A stretch of DNA of 32,622 bases from Promethearchaeia archaeon (GTDB taxonomy: Archaea > Asgardarchaeota > Lokiarchaeia > Sigyniarchaeales > SOKP01). A program made the translations under genes and the position numbers. Of the stretch, positions 20,578 to 32,622 are shown piece after piece. The stretch spans positions 1-32,622 of the forward strand of contig JAHQWH010000111.1 in the NCBI GenBank assembly GCA_029856105.1, given 5' to 3'. Under the pieces are notes generated by a model. The model was not told the origin of the DNA, did no database searches, and saw only the letters and a list, made by a program, of their open reading frames with translations. Each line of letters starts with the position of its first letter. Positions within the stretch are counted from its first letter, which is position 1.

Positions 20578-22086
20578 GTGAATTTTAAAATGATTAGTAA
20601 AGATGTTAAAATAGAAATTGTGTTTATAGGAAAACCACAGTGGGAAGCTGGATGGCCTTATTTGGGATTTGACAATAACAAAACGATAGATTCCATTAGA
20701 AAACATCTAAACGAGAAATTTATTAAAATTGAGTTTATCTATAGTGAAATTATTACGACATACGATAACGAATTAGTTAACCAGATTAAAAAGGATATCG
20801 AAGAGGCTGACGGGGTTATAGTTTTTACGATAGGTCATTATGGAGACCCCGGAATTGTTCAAGCAGGCATTGAATTTATTGAGAGCAAAAAGCCAGTAAT
20901 ATTAGCCAATTATATTTATGCTGGAGATCATACATTCACAAAAATATTCTCAAGTGTTAAAGACAAGAATTATCAGCTATCGATATTGTCTTCAAAAAAT
21001 TTAGAGGATTTTGACAAGATGTTTGAGAATATGTTTAATCTCGTGCGTTTAAGAGGAAAAAGAGTCTTAGTTTACGCCAAGGACGTCATAAAAATGAACT
21101 GGGATGTCATATTAGGGTTGTTTAATCCCGAACGAATGCGAATAGCTAAAAATCATCCAGAGTTTTTGGATCAAATAGGTAAAATGAGTAGCGATGAGGA
21201 GTTTGAATTTTATACCGATACGGTTGGTTTTGATCAAGCACACCAGTGGAGAAAGGATGAAGTGCTTTATAAAGAAATTTTAAAGAATGTATTCGATATA
21301 GAAATGATTAGAGGAGATCCACAGGAGATTCTCAAATATTATAATGAAGCTAACACGGACCAAGCAAAAGAAATCGCTCAAAAATGGATTAAAAATGCTG
21401 CAATAGTAGAACCCACTGATAAAACCATTTTAAATTCCGCAAAACTATACCTAGCTTTTAAAAATATCTTGAAAGATAAAGACATTGACATTTTTACTCC
21501 TGATTGTGGCACCTTCCTATTGTGCGGCGCGTTTCCCGCTTATCCTTGCATGGCTTTTTTCGAATTAAGTAAAGAAGGAAAATACGGCATATGTGAATCC
21601 GACATGGATTCGACCATAAGCTTTCTTTTTGGACTGTACCTAACTGGTAGACCGGGATATGTGTCCAACCACACTTTTGATATCAAAAAAAATCAAATCA
21701 CTTATATGCATTGTGTAGCACCATGTAATTTGCAAGGATCAGAGGGTCCACAAGCGCTTTATGATATCGTTTACCATGGTGAAACTCATTTTTTAGGTGC
21801 CTCACCTCGCGTTAAATTTCCAATAGGGGAACCAGTAACGACTATTAAAATCAGCGTTTTTGAAAAAAAAATTTCAATCCGTACGGGAAAAATAATAGAT
21901 AACATAGTGGATGAAAGGGGCTGCGTTTCTAAAATGTTAGTAGAAAGCGATGTTGAAAAAATTATGGAGAACTATGATTGGAACGCATTTGGGTGGCATA
22001 GGGTAACTTTCATAGGCGATTGGAAGGAAGATTTCATAAACGGAGCAAAAATTTTAGGTTTAAAAGTTGTAGAAGATGACAAATAA
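20578..22086 (+). CDS. L-fucose/arabinose isomerase-like protein
   Basis: YPC...CESD metal motif, MHC, and C-terminal GEPVT...C....GWHRVTFIGD, resembling FucI-like C-terminal domains. Confidence 0.7.
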   Translation: MNFKMISKDVKIEIVFIGKPQWEAGWPYLGFDNNKTIDSIRKHLNEKFIKIEFIYSEIITTYDNELVNQIKKDIEEADGVIVFTIGHYGDPGIVQAGIEFIESKKPVILANYIYAGDHTFTKIFSSVKDKNYQLSILSSKNLEDFDKMFENMFNLVRLRGKRVLVYAKDVIKMNWDVILGLFNPERMRIAKNHPEFLDQIGKMSSDEEFEFYTDTVGFDQAHQWRKDEVLYKEILKNVFDIEMIRGDPQEILKYYNEANTDQAKEIAQKWIKNAAIVEPTDKTILNSAKLYLAFKNILKDKDIDIFTPDCGTFLLCGAFPAYPCMAFFELSKEGKYGICESDMDSTISFLFGLYLTGRPGYVSNHTFDIKKNQITYMHCVAPCNLQGSEGPQALYDIVYHGETHFLGASPRVKFPIGEPVTTIKISVFEKKISIRTGKIIDNIVDERGCVSKMLVESDVEKIMENYDWNAFGWHRVTFIGDWKEDFINGAKILGLKVVEDDK

Positions 22087-22162
22087 ATATCAGAAAGCAT
22101 TAAAATAGTTTCTCAACAAAATTGTATATAAATAATTAATATTAAATGAAAAGTGATAAAAT

Positions 22163-23515
22163 TTGAGAGAAAAAGATAGAATTCATTCATTTTCAGGTCA
22201 TTTTCTTTATTCGTTAGCAGCGATTCCAAGCGCATTGCATTACAATATGATCCAATCATTTTTAATATTTTTTTATACTATCGTAGCTGGGTTATCGCTT
22301 GGAGCAGCCGGGATGCTTTTGCTATTATATGGTATTTGGAACGCCGTTAACGACCCGCTAATGGGATATTACATGGATAAATGGAAATTCAAAAAATGGG
22401 GTCGACGCATCCCTTATATTGTAATTGGAATAGTTCCATTTACTATTGGTTTTATATTTTTATGGTGGGTTCCGTGGACAGACCAAACGGGAATTTTCTT
22501 ACATGGTTTGATTATGTTGTTTTTATTTGATTTCGGTTTCACACTGGCAATGACCGCATGGTCGGCGTTGTACACAGAAATGTATGAAGACGAAAAGGAG
22601 CGCGCGTCAGTTGTTGCCATTAAAGACTTGATTGCTTTTCTTTCTGCGATGATTGGGATAATATTACCTCCTTTATTAGCATCTGCAATGGGATGGCCCA
22701 TAGTAGGTATATTATTTGGTGCTTTAATACCGGTTACTATGTTATTGTCTCTTTTGGGTACAAAGGAAAGAAAGGAATATCAGATCGATGATCCGCTCCC
22801 TGTTTTTACGGCATTTAAAGAAACTTTATCGAATATGCCATTTCTAAACATTACATTGACCTACACATTAATAGATTTCTTTACAGGATTAACACTAACC
22901 ATTCTCCCTTTATATGCCCGATTTATTCTTAATATGGATGAGGGATTAGTTGGATTTGCGGCAATAGGGATTGCCCTAGGGATTCTTACAAGCGTTTTAT
23001 TCTGGAAGTGGGTTTATGCCAAAAAAGGTCCAAAGTATGGATTATTGCTCTCTATTGGAATTTTTACGATTGGAATTTGGCCTTTATTCCTTGTTGATAA
23101 CTTTCCTCTCCTAGTTATTCTTACAATAATTCCAGGATTTGGAGCAGGGGGGATGCTAATGACTGAACCAGCTATGAGCGCCGCAATAGATTCAGACGAG
23201 TTAAAGACGGGTAAAAGGCGAGAAGCAACATTTATGGGGGTCTTAACTTTTGTAGCAAGATTAGCAATGGTTTTTTCAGGTTTAACATTGATAATCGTAC
23301 AAGTTTTAACGGGATTTGATTCAGAAGCTATCACACAATCCCCACAAGCGGAGATTGGATTAAAAGCATTAGTATCGTTCGTTCCAGTTATAGGTGGTTT
23401 ACTTGCTTTGTTTGTGTTTAAGTTTTTCCCACTTAACTACGATAAATTCATGGAGCAACAAAAAAAGTTGAGCGATCTACACGAAGAACGTTTGACTAAA
23501 TTAAAGAATTTATAA
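22163..23515 (+). CDS. Glycoside-pentoside-hexuronide (MelB-like) transporter
   Basis: IWNAVNDPLMGYYMD, WGRRIPY, DSDELKTGKRREA, about 12 TM helices. Confidence 0.92.
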   Translation: MREKDRIHSFSGHFLYSLAAIPSALHYNMIQSFLIFFYTIVAGLSLGAAGMLLLLYGIWNAVNDPLMGYYMDKWKFKKWGRRIPYIVIGIVPFTIGFIFLWWVPWTDQTGIFLHGLIMLFLFDFGFTLAMTAWSALYTEMYEDEKERASVVAIKDLIAFLSAMIGIILPPLLASAMGWPIVGILFGALIPVTMLLSLLGTKERKEYQIDDPLPVFTAFKETLSNMPFLNITLTYTLIDFFTGLTLTILPLYARFILNMDEGLVGFAAIGIALGILTSVLFWKWVYAKKGPKYGLLLSIGIFTIGIWPLFLVDNFPLLVILTIIPGFGAGGMLMTEPAMSAAIDSDELKTGKRREATFMGVLTFVARLAMVFSGLTLIIVQVLTGFDSEAITQSPQAEIGLKALVSFVPVIGGLLALFVFKFFPLNYDKFMEQQKKLSDLHEERLTKLKNL

Positions 23516-23542
23516 AAAGTTAAATTTTTTTATTTTTTATTT

Positions 23543-24616
23543 TTAAGTTTCGATCTCTTTAGGTTCTTCTCTAGGTAATCTATCGTCAACTACCGGAATA
23601 GATTTGAATTTCTGATGTGGCTCTGTTTGATACCAGTAAGCTGTTGAAGACCAATCGTCTGATCTTTGATTCGCGTGACCGTGTTCTATCTTTACTTTAA
23701 TATTTTTGTGAAAATATATTGGATCTTCAATGTGATACCTATAATAGGATATTTTTCCGCTCCAGTTTTTACCTCCTGGCAATGGAATTCCAAAATAAGG
23801 CGAACAATAGTATTGGTTTGGAGCCCATGAAGTACAAAAATAATCTTCGGTCCCAGTTCCGTAAAGTATAATTTCGCCGTCATCGATCTCTATGTAATCG
23901 TCTCCCTCACCAGGCCACCATAGATCATTTCTTGAAGCATTTTCAGGAGTCATAAGATTATGAATATTCATATTGCAACCCACATAATGACCCTCTCCAA
24001 CCGCATCAAGAACAAGATAATCTTTATCATGTGTTTTATTCTTCTTAATAAAATGTTCCACTTTCGATCCAGTTCCATACGGCTTTCCTTCGCAAGGATT
24101 TTCTCGATTCCAAAAAGCATGAAACCTACCATAATCAGAATGCAGTTTTGAGTGTTCTTCATAATCAATATAAAAATATAATACAGTTATGGTATCCGAT
24201 TCATTCTCTACTTCGATTTTGGCATGAGTGGTAAAAGGCATTGGGAAAAAGCAATTAAATCCTTTGCCATCATTTGGCCCATTGGAAAATGGAAGGCTCC
24301 AAAAGTTCACGGTTTTACCGTGTCCAATTCCAAAAAAGTCTCCTATAGGAACTTCAACTGAAGGGTTATTTTCGTTATCCCACCACATTCTCAAAACTAA
24401 TTTTCGAAGATAATTAGGATCTGAGGATGCAATCGTCATCCAAATGTGTTTAATTATCCCAGCTCCAGATATATCGCATATTTGATATGTTTCACTTGGT
24501 TTTATTATAATATTATCCATATTACCTCCAGACTTATCGTAACTCGAAATTCGCTTTCTTTTTATATCCTTACGGATTATCGCTAAATTTGATAAAGAAT
24601 TAAATCCAAACTCCAT
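23543..24616 (-). CDS. DUF2961 / glycoside hydrolase family 172
   Basis: SSYDKSGGN.D, GAGIIKHIWMT, EVPIGDFFG, FNCFFPMPF, WWPGEGDD, GTGTEDYF, YRYHIEDPI, IEHGHAN, AYWYQ. Confidence 0.9.
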   Translation of the reverse strand: MEFGFNSLSNLAIIRKDIKRKRISSYDKSGGNMDNIIIKPSETYQICDISGAGIIKHIWMTIASSDPNYLRKLVLRMWWDNENNPSVEVPIGDFFGIGHGKTVNFWSLPFSNGPNDGKGFNCFFPMPFTTHAKIEVENESDTITVLYFYIDYEEHSKLHSDYGRFHAFWNRENPCEGKPYGTGSKVEHFIKKNKTHDKDYLVLDAVGEGHYVGCNMNIHNLMTPENASRNDLWWPGEGDDYIEIDDGEIILYGTGTEDYFCTSWAPNQYYCSPYFGIPLPGGKNWSGKISYYRYHIEDPIYFHKNIKVKIEHGHANQRSDDWSSTAYWYQTEPHQKFKSIPVVDDRLPREEPKEIET

Positions 24617-28819: not shown

Positions 28820-29566
28820 TTACTCGCTACTGAAATTCAACTTTTTAATTTGGGGTTTATTTTGGGATAATGTCTTTATTATTGAAATTATATCGTCTTT
28901 CTTACGGGTATTAAGAACGAGAGAATTTTTATCTCCACTTAATTTAATAACATTAAATTCGATAAGGTTATTAATTCGATAGTAAATTGTCTCTCTTTTT
29001 TCATTTACCAATTTATGGACATCACTTCTTTTGAGTTTTTCATTTCTAATTAGCAATTGAATAATTTTTAAGTATATCTCATCAAGTAAAATAAAATAAA
29101 TTAAACCGATTTCGTCATCAATCTCATAAGGAAGAAAAACAGTGTAGTTTTTAATTTTAATCTTTTTAATGTAATTAAATTTGATAAGCATTTCCAAATG
29201 CCATATTAACTGACCAGAACTTCCCAAGTTGCCAATACTATCTGTTATGATTTGTTTTTTAATAGTTGAAAAATGAGCTCCTAAATTGGAGGTCAAAAAT
29301 CTATAAAGTTTAAACCTATACTTATTATTAAGAACTTCATCTCTTGTGTATTTTGAGCCCTCAACTAACACTTTTTTATTAATAAGTAACTGTATGATGC
29401 TCAAGAGCCCTTTTCGGGGAAGTTTTAATCGTCTTTTAGCCAGATTATACAGTAATTCTGTATCTAACACATTGTTATTGTTTATTACATCTTTTGCGAT
29501 GTCTATTACACTTTGTACGCTTGGATGTTTCAGTGTTAACGAAAGTGCAATATTTAAATTAGACAT
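28820..29566 (-). CDS. Tandem winged-helix transcriptional regulator
   Basis: VLNNKYRFKLYRFL..NLGAHFSTIK...SSGQLIWHLEML, and a second HTH KRSDVHKLVNEKRETIYYRINNLIEFNVI. Confidence 0.8.
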   Translation of the reverse strand: MSNLNIALSLTLKHPSVQSVIDIAKDVINNNNVLDTELLYNLAKRRLKLPRKGLLSIIQLLINKKVLVEGSKYTRDEVLNNKYRFKLYRFLTSNLGAHFSTIKKQIITDSIGNLGSSGQLIWHLEMLIKFNYIKKIKIKNYTVFLPYEIDDEIGLIYFILLDEIYLKIIQLLIRNEKLKRSDVHKLVNEKRETIYYRINNLIEFNVIKLSGDKNSLVLNTRKKDDIISIIKTLSQNKPQIKKLNFSSE

Positions 29567-29584
29567 TTTTAGCTAAATTTTATC

Positions 29585-29607
29585 AGATAGTAGATAGATA
29601 GTAGATA
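29585..29607. repeat. 11-bp tandem direct repeat (AGATAGTAGAT x2) upstream of the wHTH gene
   Basis: agatagtagat agatagtagat a read directly, 19-41 nt upstream of the start at 29566. Confidence 0.7.
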
Positions 29608-29818
29608 AATATTTGCGGTATTCAAATATAAAAATATAGTTTTTGTAAAAATTCAATCCTAATACATTTAAATATTCTAGATAAATAATCTCTCATGTCA
29701 AGTATAGTTGATTTACCTTGATGTTATTAACGGAGATAATTAAAAATAGAGGGCTATTTTTTATTTTTAAACATTTAAATTGTTTTTTGAGTTAATAGAT
29801 TTAAAATATCTAAGATCC

Positions 29819-30025
29819 CTAATTCTTACTCAAGTTTCTTATAGGATAAGTTCCAGATTTCTTAACAGTCTCAACCATAGCTTTTACGTTTTCATATTTG
29901 CACGTACTTAAAATATCAGAACCAGCACCCAAAATATATCCACCACTCTCCGCAGCATCTTGTAGAGCTTGCTTTGTAGCTTCTGTTGTAGTCTCTATTG
30001 AACCGTATGTTATATTGTTGTTCAG
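29819..30025 (-). pseudogene. C-terminal fragment of a UroD/MtaA-family gene
   Basis: Translates ...ITYGSIETTTEATKQALQDAAESGGYILGAGSDILSTCKYENVKAMVETVKKSGTYPIRNLSKN*. There is an in-frame stop shortly upstream and no N-terminal part. Confidence 0.82.
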
Positions 30026-30185
30026 AAATTTTCTTTCTAGTTCTTTCTAAACCAAAACTAACTTCATAGACTGTTATCGAAGTTATGTGAATTAAGTTTT
30101 CTTGTTCAAATAAAACTTTTTTAAGTTGCTTGTTACCATTTAAATAATCAATACAGGCTGTTATTTACTTTAAAAAATAAGAATT
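30020..30185 (-). pseudogene. Degenerate PIN-domain (VapC-like) toxin, 5' half
   Basis: Translates YFLK*ITACIDYLNGNKQLKKVLFEQENLIHITSITVYEVSFGLERTRKKISEQ. It matches the PIN pattern hhhDT.hhIDYL.G...ITSIT.YE..G, with the first Asp region replaced by a stop. Confidence 0.68.
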
Positions 30186-30335
30186 TTAGGCTTGCTCTCT
30201 TAAATTAACTCGCAAGAAATTCAAGAGCTTTTGATCTTTCTCCATTTTTATTAATATTATATTCGTATAATGATGAAACAGACATACTGGAGGATTAGCA
30301 TTAATTTTGAATAAAAAAGAATAAAAAAAGTAATT

Positions 30336-31772
30336 TTAATAGATCTGATCCCAAAGTTCCTTATATTTTATATAAATGAGATTATTTTGCTCAAATAAAG
30401 TTTCTAAATCTACTAAAGCTTCTGATTTAATCCTTTCTATGTTTCGCTCAAAATCTTTTTTAAATTTAAATATCTCAGCCTTAACAACTTTAGTTGGATT
30501 GATTGGTTTATAATTGCCGTTTGAAGTAATTATCCATTCACGTTGTATAAGAGAATTAAGAGCGTTATTAAGCTTTTTTTCCTCTAATTTCATAACATTA
30601 TTTAACATCGTTAAATCAGCGTTTCCTAAAGATACAAGAGTTGCATATGTTTTTATCTCAATATCAGAGATTTTTAAAAACCGCATAGCTGAAAATACTT
30701 TTTCATTTAATTTTTTTATTTTTGATTTCTTTTTTAAGGCTTCTTTTTTTATTTTTGAAAGATTAACTGTATTAGAAAGAATAATTTTTCTTGCGGAAAC
30801 TCCTTCATCAAATAATTTCTTACCAACATCACTACGTATAATTACACTATTCCAACCTTCTTCAGGTTTACCTACACTTCCTACAGAGATATCTGCAAAT
30901 TCGGCAGAATAATCTTTACAATACTGACAACTAGCCCAATTATAATTTTTAGTTTCTTTTATTGGAACCTTTTTAATTGAACCATCTTTCGTGTAAACTA
31001 CGAAATTACCACGAGACATATCAAATTTTTCTACATCACTTAACACTATTCCAAGTTTTTCTTGAACAAGCTTTTCCATTAAATCATAAGAATAATTAGA
31101 GGTGCAATAAAGCCCAATGATCAATGTAAACTTACCATATTTATTAGAAAGAGGCGGCCATAGTTGAAATTTCCGTGCTGCCCTAATTTGGCATGGCATA
31201 CCAACAAAAGCTAATTTTTCGAGTTTATACTTATTAACCGCATCATCATATGCCAGTAGAGTTGGTGCCATTGTGTAAATTGAACCAGCTACATTTAAGA
31301 TTTCTTCAGGTGTTCTTACTACTATAGGTTTTGGACGCCAATTTTCATCCCTAGCTGCTAAAAGTACCCCATCGATTAAACCTGTGTTTAGAGCTTGAAT
31401 AAGTAACGTTGAAACTATTCCACCATTTTGAGCTACATTTAGAATTTCCTCATTAGCGCTTCTTGCTGCGGTTATTTGTTGATAGTGTCCTATTAGCTGA
31501 TCTTTAGAAACTTGTTCTTTAAAAAGTTCTTTCTCGAACATCTCTTCTGGAAAATATGTTCTCGCGCAATATTTAAAACATAATGAACATTCTGGACAAC
31601 TTTCAAGAAGTACTGGTTTTTCATCCTTTACGCCAATACGAGGACAAAGTGAGACGCAGGCCCCACAAAAGACACACGCATCTTTATTTATAACATGGTC
31701 GTATAAATCGTTAAAACCAATACCCGCTTCAGTAGTTTGCAAATAATCAATAAATTCTTCTTTATTATCCAT
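30336..31772 (-). CDS. FrhB/FdhB-like F420-interacting flavo-iron-sulfur protein with C-terminal TrmB-type HTH
   Basis: N-terminal ferredoxin CVFCGACVSLCP/CPECSLCFKYC; FrhB motifs QNGGIVSTLL, VGMPCQ, IGLYC, CQYCKD...ADISVG; C-terminal ISDIEIKTYATLVSLG...LNNALNSLIQREWI...YKPINP. Confidence 0.88.
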   Translation of the reverse strand: MDNKEEFIDYLQTTEAGIGFNDLYDHVINKDACVFCGACVSLCPRIGVKDEKPVLLESCPECSLCFKYCARTYFPEEMFEKELFKEQVSKDQLIGHYQQITAARSANEEILNVAQNGGIVSTLLIQALNTGLIDGVLLAARDENWRPKPIVVRTPEEILNVAGSIYTMAPTLLAYDDAVNKYKLEKLAFVGMPCQIRAARKFQLWPPLSNKYGKFTLIIGLYCTSNYSYDLMEKLVQEKLGIVLSDVEKFDMSRGNFVVYTKDGSIKKVPIKETKNYNWASCQYCKDYSAEFADISVGSVGKPEEGWNSVIIRSDVGKKLFDEGVSARKIILSNTVNLSKIKKEALKKKSKIKKLNEKVFSAMRFLKISDIEIKTYATLVSLGNADLTMLNNVMKLEEKKLNNALNSLIQREWIITSNGNYKPINPTKVVKAEIFKFKKDFERNIERIKSEALVDLETLFEQNNLIYIKYKELWDQIY

Positions 31773-32218
31773 TTTCTCCCTTACAAAATATTTTCTTTAA
31801 TTATGATTTTTAAAAGTTTTTATTTAAACAATAATAATATAAATGATTTCTGAAAAATTTTAACATTTTTTAGCTATTATATTTATCAATTTCAATTATG
31901 ATTTTTTTAATATATAACAATGTAATTAATGGATATTAACATATAAATAAAGTATAAAAAACTTTTTTTGCAGAATAATCTTTGTGACCTTTCAGAAAGC
32001 TTTTATTCGGCGATTCTACAAGGTGACTAAAATTATTTTACAACCTTATATTTTTTTTCCATAAATTTAAAAAAATTTTAATATGTTATTTTATTTTTCA
32101 TTAGGAAGGGAGTTTAAAACACTTGAAATGCTAAAATTTCTCTTAATATTCCACAATATTATCTTTATTTATTAAATTGGATATTAAAAAAATAGGTATA
32201 AAAAAATTATTTAATAAA

Positions 32219-32622
32219 TTATTGGTTTAAATACTCGTTCATTTCTACGAAGGAACTCGTTCGTATGAGAGCAGATTTGAGAAATTGAAATCCAATGTCG
32301 TATGTAGAGCCATCGCCGGCAATATGTATAACATACGGCACCTCTCCATTGAACAAACCTTTCGATTTAAGAATTTTATAGGTTGTGTTTATTCCTTCGG
32401 CTATAGTAGCTCCGCTTTCAAATAAGTGGTGAACCCAAGGAACTTTCCAAGAAGTCACAAAATCTTTCGCTGTCGATACTTCGCTACAACTCGTGTTATT
32501 CACATAAATAATGTTGTTACCCGCGACTGCTGTAGCTGCTGTAGCCATCTGATTCAAGATCATTCCAGCGCCACAACCAGGGCATAATCCGTGTCCCGGA
32601 TGGAGATGTTGTTGAGGTTCTA
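32219..32622 (-). CDS. 2-oxoacid:ferredoxin oxidoreductase beta-subunit-like region (5' end outside window, C-terminally short)
   Basis: The frame is open to the window edge: HPGHGLCPGCG, NNTSCSEVST, WKVPWVHHLFES, AGDGSTYDIGFQ. Confidence 0.85.
   Translation of the reverse strand, partial: EPQQHLHPGHGLCPGCGAGMILNQMATAATAVAGNNIIYVNNTSCSEVSTAKDFVTSWKVPWVHHLFESGATIAEGINTTYKILKSKGLFNGEVPYVIHIAGDGSTYDIGFQFLKSALIRTSSFVEMNEYLNQ

Follow-up and report, generated by a model that had tools for sequence, protein, structure and literature searches.

The stretch of DNA analysed here (the window) comprises 32,622 nucleotides from a Promethearchaeia archaeon of the Asgard lineage (contig JAHQWH010000111.1). 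Toward its end, on the reverse strand, lies a gene whose 478-amino-acid (aa) product joins a ferredoxin domain and an FrhB/FdhB module to a tail resembling the DNA-binding domain of TrmB regulators. A preliminary description, made from the letters alone, proposed that this protein reads the redox state of F420 or ferredoxin and regulates transcription directly. The present annotation of the family says only "F420 hydrogenase beta subunit C-terminal domain". The gene opens with ATG, 4 nt after a Shine-Dalgarno sequence, GGGAG (31776-31780), and its parts are as follows.

30336..31772 (-): whole gene; ferredoxin plus FrhB plus TrmB-type tail, 478 aa (open reading frame [ORF] and translation, Pfam, NCBIfam)
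31518..31697 (-): N-terminal 2x[4Fe-4S] ferredoxin domain, aa 26-85 (Fer4 matches and likeness to FrhG, TIGR03294)
31257..31472 (-): FrhB_FdhB_N, aa 101-172 (PF04422, 85.8 bits, 2e-24)
30771..31220 (-): FrhB_FdhB_C, aa 185-334, with the Cys ligands of its own [4Fe-4S] cluster (PF04432, 143.5 bits, 6e-42)
30681..30767 (-): basic helical linker, aa 336-364 (K348 and K349 invariant; aligns to the extension of the carbon monoxide dehydrogenase [CODH] zeta subunit)
30498..30680 (-): TrmB-type winged helix, aa 365-425 (PF01978 above cut-off, TrmBL2 by Foldseek, column comparison)
30360..30497 (-): long amphipathic helix, aa 426-471, predicted antiparallel pairing helix (AlphaFold2 and homodimer model)

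The architecture first described, all in one ORF, is borne out by translation and by Pfam. Both FrhB domains pass their cut-offs (22 bits for PF04422 and 23.3 for PF04432). Fer4 is matched at aa 27-44 (Pfam), and a second Cys group lies at C59/C62/C65/C69; aa 20-80 match positions 163-226 of the FrhG model TIGR03294 (NCBIfam), that is, the C-terminal ferredoxin part of FrhG. An alignment of 36 relatives shows which of these residues are kept. C33/C36/C39/C43 and C62/C65/C69 of the ferredoxin domain are invariant, as are the FrhB cluster ligands C194 (PCQ), C223 (GLYC), and C282/C285 (CxxC), whose motifs had been called intact. The assignment of two [4Fe-4S] ferredoxin clusters needs one correction: the first ligand of the second cluster is Asp rather than Cys in most relatives. 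The linker, noted earlier as Lys-rich, has a mean net charge of +4.1 across the fusion relatives, along with its invariant Lys pair.

No part of the protein is better conserved than the redox module, which has a pairwise identity of 62-66% (47-48% for the tail), and to judge by sequence this module is intact and complete. Comparison of the family profile with PDB sequences places the CODH zeta subunit closest (8riu_B, 281 bits); the other nearest solved relatives are FrhB (9r51_B, 262 bits), FwdI, and Fsr. All are enzymes that react with F420. Among NCBIfam models, the FrhB subfamily PRK09325 is passed (281 bits, cut-off 269), but the FrhB equivalog TIGR03289 is not (265.5 bits, cut-off 331.5), nor are the FpoF/FqoF models NF040616 and NF006808 (192.8 and 189.3 bits, cut-offs 475 and 444). 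Homology, together with F420 biosynthesis genes in the genome, supports FAD binding and reaction with F420. The genome encodes CofH, two CofE proteins, and Mtd, so F420 is available to the organism.

About ten FrhB paralogues are encoded in the same genome, fused to GltD/NfnB-like modules, DHODB-type Fe-S modules, or extra ferredoxin modules. With partners so varied, FrhB serves here as a general electron-input module. Paralogues lie at the following places.

Genome G000, C11:19623-22361; C194:70801-72618; C132:13547-15046, 21670-23175, and 23168-24280: FrhB paralogues

Their arrangements include Fer4-FrhB-Fer4_20-Pyr_redox_2 (912 aa), FrhB with a DHODB Fe-S module (605 aa), and a 499-aa Fer4-FrhB protein whose last 160 aa are unassigned. 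This last C-terminus, from a C132 paralogue, was considered as a relative of the TrmB-type tail and rejected, as the two share no similarity.

The TrmB-type domain occupies the C-terminus (aa 365-471), and Pfam finds no TrmB_C domain in the protein. PF01978 scores 32.2 bits with the whole protein and 35.2 bits with the tail alone (gathering cut-off, 25.6), so hidden Markov model searches match every domain for which they had been suggested: FrhB_FdhB_N, FrhB_FdhB_C, Fer4, and TrmB. A tail profile run against PDB sequences matched TrmBL2 and TrmB. AlphaFold2, given the 36-sequence alignment, models the whole protein with a predicted local distance difference test (pLDDT) score of 82 and a predicted template modelling score of 0.82; the tail modelled alone reaches a pLDDT of 87.8, and tail residues lie at about 85-95. 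The predicted tail consists of three helices, a two-strand wing, and then helix 426-471, which agrees with the winged helix-turn-helix (wHTH) and following long helix expected from the letters. Its top Foldseek matches are TrmBL2 (TM-score 0.65-0.67; root-mean-square deviation about 2.4-2.6 A).

The residues with which TrmB proteins read DNA have fared differently from this fold. Recognition-helix residues Y50 and D51 are DNA-binding residues of TrmB proteins, and an antiparallel coiled coil is their dimer device (PMC4158304). For comparison, 36 fusion tails were aligned column-wise with 95 ordinary TrmB proteins, which carry the signature P(61/95)-R(48)-S(44)-R/K(60)-x-Y(87)-D/E(52). Where the ordinary proteins have P-R-S-K/R-x-Y-D, the fusions have E/D-E/K-x-x-I/V-x-N, with replacements that are variable and often acidic. 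Only 4 of 36 fusions keep the Tyr, which 87 of 95 ordinary proteins have, and none of the 36 has the Pro, found in 61 of 95; the window protein has N402-N403 at the positions of Y50 and D51. Within the tail, variation is greatest on the exposed face of the recognition helix, and the mean net charge of the wHTH is +0.8 (from -4 to +7). The invariant residues lie elsewhere: Y376, L379, L390, L408, and W413 in the hydrophobic core, plus P426, E433, L456, N463, and N464. Together they map to the core and to the predicted dimer interface.

That interface comes from a model of the tail as a homodimer, which scores 0.66, the best of three controls scoring 0.00. (Of 30 proteins solved as pairs of one chain, 20 attain this mark; of 23 solved as single chains, 1 does.) Separate runs share at least 94% of contacts, with a partner pLDDT of at least 83, although the pass may reflect likeness to TrmB, because TrmB dimers have already been solved. 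The modelled interface is formed by the antiparallel pair of long helices, by helix 353-366, which spans the end of the linker, and by the first wHTH helix; it includes P426, I434, L456, and N463. The recognition helix and wing are left exposed. Since the core TrmB residues and the pairing helix are kept and the DNA-reading face is not, fold and pairing, rather than a DNA-reading surface, would explain the conservation of the tail. DNA binding by the tail is, on this comparison, unsupported. A tail without the TrmB DNA-reading residues more likely pairs two copies of an enzyme than acts as an F420-sensing switch.

The fusion is not an assembly artefact. A large protein collection contains 352 homologues with full-length coverage, and the best 120 share 53-98% identity over at least 97% of the query. 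All but one of these 120 are 472-497 aa long; the exception is a 370-aa fragment on a 1.3-kb contig. A tail-only profile finds only 149 matches among 1.84 billion proteins. The top ones are fusions or fragments of fusions, and a score gap from E 1e-19 to 1e-8 parts fusion tails from ordinary TrmB regulators of 245-290 aa. A survey of 400 Asgard species genomes gave matches at E <= 1e-10 in 53, about 50 of them to fusions, so the architecture is by no means absent from relatives. By group, it occurs in 43 of 134 genomes of the window's family, in 10 of 41 of its genus, and in 5 of 5 of one other family; such patchy occurrence marks it as an accessory gene. Relatives are named Promethearchaeota, Hodarchaeota, and Borrarchaeum. 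Literature searches on FrhB with TrmB, Asgard archaea, or DNA binding found no description of the fusion, in keeping with the preliminary description, which knew of no characterised protein of this architecture.

A collinear fusion with 30% identity and all three Pfam domains is found in the ethane oxidisers Ca. Argoarchaeum and Ca. Ethanoperedens (GoM-Arc1).

L055:1272-2687 and L053:3902-5236: GoM-Arc1 FrhB-TrmB fusions, separate from the CODH zeta subunit of those archaea

A quick maximum-likelihood tree, built with the tail columns left in, groups the Asgard fusions in one supported clade. The GoM-Arc1 fusions stand apart on a long branch, and their fork with unfused Methanothrix and Syntrophoarchaeum proteins is unresolved. 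The Asgard and GoM-Arc1 fusions may have a single origin, which this tree neither shows nor excludes. Nested within the fusion clade is a 588-aa protein (L047:7827-9593) in which a C-terminal polyferredoxin of about four Fer4 motifs replaces the TrmB tail. Elsewhere, a 133-aa protein of the tail subfamily stands alone (L097:222-626) on a 664-nt contig, with a heme-copper-oxidase-like fragment upstream on the other strand. The best candidates for stand-alone tails (P0122 and P0130) were set aside: their contigs measure only 664-816 nt, too short for context to be read, and most short matches are fragments of fusions.

Together, these results suggest a stand-alone homodimeric F420/ferredoxin oxidoreductase whose TrmB-derived tail has been exapted as a pairing clamp. 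This is the likeliest of the readings, though one on which we stand evenly divided between acceptance and doubt. The domain content, the intact cofactor ligands, their conservation, the loss of the TrmB DNA-contact residues, and the stand-alone gene are all observed. We infer that F420 and ferredoxin are the substrates, that the protein is a dimer, and that it does not bind DNA sequence-specifically. The gene product would then be a soluble flavo-iron-sulfur oxidoreductase in which the FrhB module, with FAD and one [4Fe-4S] cluster, exchanges hydride with coenzyme F420. The N-terminal two-cluster ferredoxin domain would hand electrons to ferredoxin or to a loosely associated partner of the Hdr/Mvh type. 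The winged helix and long helix would serve mainly as an antiparallel clamp joining two copies, a role that would elaborate the short dimer-forming extension already present in the CODH zeta subunit. The polyferredoxin that takes the place of the tail in L047 supports an enzyme, as do the FrhB paralogues of the same genome that are fused to enzyme modules.

Several points weigh against this reading. To our knowledge, all PF01978 members characterised so far bind DNA. A confident wHTH fold, complete with its wing, has been kept from Asgard archaea to GoM-Arc1 at 30% identity, more than pairing through a helix alone would require. Next to the recognition helix, some basic residues are conserved (K395 in 31/36, K409 in 24/36, R411 in 35/36), and these could contact the DNA backbone. 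The gene is monocistronic, has a long 5' region, and is often divergent from Hdr/FrhB operons, the usual position of a local regulator. MreA, a DNA-binding regulator of the TrmB family, also lacks the Y-D pair (PMC4158304, Table 1). Finally, TrmBL2, the best fold match, is titled in its PDB entry an archaeal chromatin protein with a novel DNA-binding mode.

The same points lend weight to the idea first proposed, a one-component redox-responsive DNA-binding protein comparable to PutA or Rex, which we consider unlikely though not far-fetched. The FAD/Fe-S redox state, set by the F420H2/F420 or ferredoxin pools, would alter the geometry of the dimeric wHTH, and with it DNA binding and transcription of Hdr/FrhB-type redox genes. 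Binding could be non-canonical or of low sequence specificity, as with TrmBL2. Such a sensor would account for a complete TrmB DNA-binding architecture, wHTH and antiparallel pairing helix together, that scores above the Pfam cut-off, finds its best fold match in a DNA-binding chromatin protein, leaves its recognition helix and wing open to solvent in the dimer model, and keeps K395, K409, and R411. Patchy, accessory distribution suits a regulator as well. It would not account for the loss of the canonical DNA-contact residues, for exposed recognition-helix positions that are the least conserved in the tail, or for a wHTH with so little mean net charge. The redox half of the proposal is sound, given a correctly described, conserved fusion in an organism that makes F420; the regulatory half loses ground through the contact residues not kept, the variable recognition-helix face, and an upstream region in which no conserved palindromic operator appears.

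That upstream region is as long as had been stated, and it was compared with others in word statistics over 35 upstream regions. The features concerned are these.

31773..32218 (-): upstream region, 446 bp, with a AAAAGTTT-type element resembling a B recognition element/TATA box about 194 nt before the start
31907..31942 (-): candidate 11-codon upstream ORF, MLISINYIVIY, with its ATG in the conserved word TTATATG
L044:6731-6900: type 1 upstream ORF and hairpin, with counterparts in L009, L013, L026, L028, L031, L034, L035, L037, L048, L050, and L051
L019, L027, L029, L032, L033, L036, and L038-L042: type 2 loci; in the window, 31907-31942 (-), with TTATATG

Two layouts are conserved, type 1 in 13 loci and type 2 in 12. 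Type 1 begins with the promoter-like element AAAAGTTTATA, followed by a 28-codon ORF (consensus MISSNTAKRILVRVLISLSIIILAVLII) that ends in a run of I/L/V. Directly after its stop come the hairpin AAGCG-N9-CGCTT and a T-run, and then TTGTTCGCTT, which is able to pair alternatively with AAGCGAA, the first arm of the hairpin. The RNA fold has z = -5.3, and the whole looks like a leader-peptide attenuator or the gene for a tiny membrane protein. Type 2 has an invariant GATCATTTATATG about 98 nt before the start, whose ATG opens an I/L/V/F-rich ORF of 5-11 codons. Its peptides include MLGLI, MLVIL, MFVFI, and MLISINYIVIY, and the distance to the main start is fixed in 10 loci. In the window, the AAAAGTTT word stands at -194 and TTATATG, which opens MLISINYIVIY, at -174; a 98%-identical relative (L014) has MFISINYIVKY at the matching place. 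The window leader RNA is not structured (z = +2.05).

The upstream elements resemble a promoter with an upstream ORF, not an operator. A dyad scan of the 35 regions found no palindromic operator shared across lineages, which tells against a sensor, as do enriched upstream words that amount to promoter, small upstream ORF, and hairpin. Its lone strong dyad, AAGCG-N9-CGCTT, was rejected as an operator: it is the hairpin after the upstream ORF, belongs to one subclade, and is absent from the window. Inverted repeats in 31773-32218 were likewise rejected, being only AT-rich, low-complexity pairs. Alignment of the upstream regions of close relatives revealed no conserved block except promoter-like A/T words. 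Rfam gave no match in 29500-32622 or in four related loci, and a tRNA search found none. (A sigma-70 promoter scan was discarded as not meaningful in an archaeon.)

ORFs were called and neighbours clustered at 31 Asgard loci. The fusion gene is always alone, never operon-coupled, and always has its own promoter region, an upstream gap of 186-563 nt. At 16 of the 31 loci, an HdrA-like, Fer4+CCG (HdrD-like), MvhD-FrhB, other FrhB, or 561-aa Mpt_N gene lies within 8 kb, and in 5 the fusion is divergent from an FrhB paralogue. This proximity is by a rough estimate far above chance for about ten islands per 3.7-Mb genome. It counts among the points for a sensor, but an alternative input module or a docking subunit would explain it just as well as a local regulator. 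The window gene itself has no Hdr island beside it, which speaks against the sensor. As first described, no hydrogenase or formate dehydrogenase subunit adjoins it, nor any Fpo subunit; frhA and frhG partners were sought in the window and the 31 related loci, and no hydrogenase genes are adjacent.

Several neighbouring proteins deserve mention in their own right. The 561-aa Mpt_N protein forms a widespread pair with a partner of 209-227 aa, seen at L038:7903-10271 and across many family genomes. A genome often has two or three copies of the pair, and its members are sometimes fused to each other; within one genus the pair and the fusion gene are often convergent. No NCBIfam model covers either protein. 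As a partner of the fusion the Mpt_N protein was rejected: 100 of 135 family genomes have it, many of these lack the fusion, and some genomes with the fusion lack the Mpt_N protein. Hdr-island proteins with winged-helix-like pieces are encoded at L040:3936-5852 (-), L038:4241-6106 (-), and L030:14137-16686 (+). In the L040 protein (638 aa, MvhD-Fer4-FrhB), HTH_DeoR is matched internally at aa 209-251; in the L030 protein (849 aa, HdrA-MvhD), the N-terminus matches DUF7347. Directly downstream of one fusion gene, L022:5885-8146 encodes a 753-aa protein that joins a degenerate FrhB-like domain to a GlcD-type FAD oxidase; in Borrarchaeum (L023:9667-13382) the same FrhB-like and GlcD parts are separate genes, followed by one for a CCG protein.

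A further possibility combines the enzyme and the sensor. In this rather unlikely case, the protein would be a moonlighting flavoenzyme of the PutA kind, whose dimer binds DNA through its non-canonical winged helices in one FAD/Fe-S redox state only, and so reports the F420H2/F420 or ferredoxin ratio to genes for Hdr/FrhB electron bifurcation. The weakest proposal, a docking subunit whose winged-helix tail plugs an F420-oxidising module into electron-bifurcating Hdr/Mvh complexes encoded nearby, would suit the frequent proximity to HdrA/MvhD/CCG/FrhB islands and the winged-helix-like insertions in other Asgard island proteins (HTH_DeoR in L040, DUF7347 in L030), but it is quite improbable for a gene that is never operon-coupled to a partner, whose variable wHTH surface speaks against a conserved protein partner as much as against DNA, whose adjacent Mpt_N gene shows no clean co-occurrence across the 135 family genomes, and whose copy in the window has no such neighbours.

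The immediate neighbours in the window are of another kind. Upstream, across the 446 bp, is the end of a PorB-like beta subunit of 2-oxoacid:ferredoxin oxidoreductase (window 32219-32620 (-); L014:987-2069). The halves of this 360-aa protein are apparently swapped: residues 21-192 resemble PorB 119-291, and residues 228-350 resemble PorB 12-122, which suggests a circular permutation. Downstream, a 769-bp gap (29567-30335) precedes a gene for a weak wHTH protein; the only ORF of more than 50 aa in the gap is on the opposite strand, and the Rfam and tRNA searches find nothing there. The window also carries genes for a Ras-type GTPase and for LRR/HEAT proteins.

We know of no sensor of F420 redox state, and a fused FrhB-DNA-binding protein would be an obvious candidate; the moonlighting flavoenzyme, if real, would be the first known F420-redox-sensing transcription factor. 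If instead the protein is an enzyme, the family clearly shows how a DNA-binding domain of transcription factors can be turned into a pairing device, and it warns against labelling every enzyme-HTH fusion a regulator. On either reading, the family is widespread and uncharacterised, and it belongs to the many FrhB fusions that channel electrons in Asgard archaea and ethane oxidisers.

Known systems offer partial parallels. PutA and Rex, whose DNA binding depends on redox state, are conceptual models for the gating of a fused DNA-binding domain by a flavin or dinucleotide, although their folds and cofactors are unrelated to those of the window protein. DsrD, a winged-helix protein of sulfite-reductase clusters, acts on the enzyme and not on DNA. 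It offers a precedent for a wHTH with a protein function in a redox-enzyme setting, but it is a separate small protein.

The FrhB subunit of F420-reducing [NiFe] hydrogenase (3ZFS/4OMF, 9R51) and FpoF/FqoF have FrhB_N, FrhB_C, and the Fe-S ligands in common with the window protein. They differ in that no FrhA/FrhG or Fpo genes adjoin the window gene, which scores below both cut-offs; moreover, the ferredoxin domain is fused in the window protein, whereas FrhG supplies it in the hydrogenase. In TrmB regulators and TrmBL2 (3QPH, 5BPD; PMC4158304), as in the window tail, the winged helix leads into an amphipathic helix for antiparallel pairing. In the window protein, however, this domain is C-terminal rather than N-terminal, the sugar-binding TrmB_C domain is lacking, and P-R-S-K/R-x-Y-D is not kept.

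The closest parallels are the zeta subunit of the CODH/acetyl-CoA decarbonylase/synthase complex (ACDS) of Ca. Ethanoperedens thermophilum (8RIU chain B) and FwdI (8RJA chain E), whose layout is like that of the window protein up to residue 365. In the zeta subunit, a two-cluster ferredoxin domain precedes an FAD/[4Fe-4S] F420-reductase domain, and a basic C-terminal extension provides the homodimer interface (PMC11493965); the alignment extends through the basic RKK motif of the window protein's linker. At 370 aa, zeta has no winged helix, is encoded in the ACDS operon, and is tightly bound to CODH, whereas the window protein comes from a stand-alone gene and is longer by a TrmB-type domain of about 115 aa.

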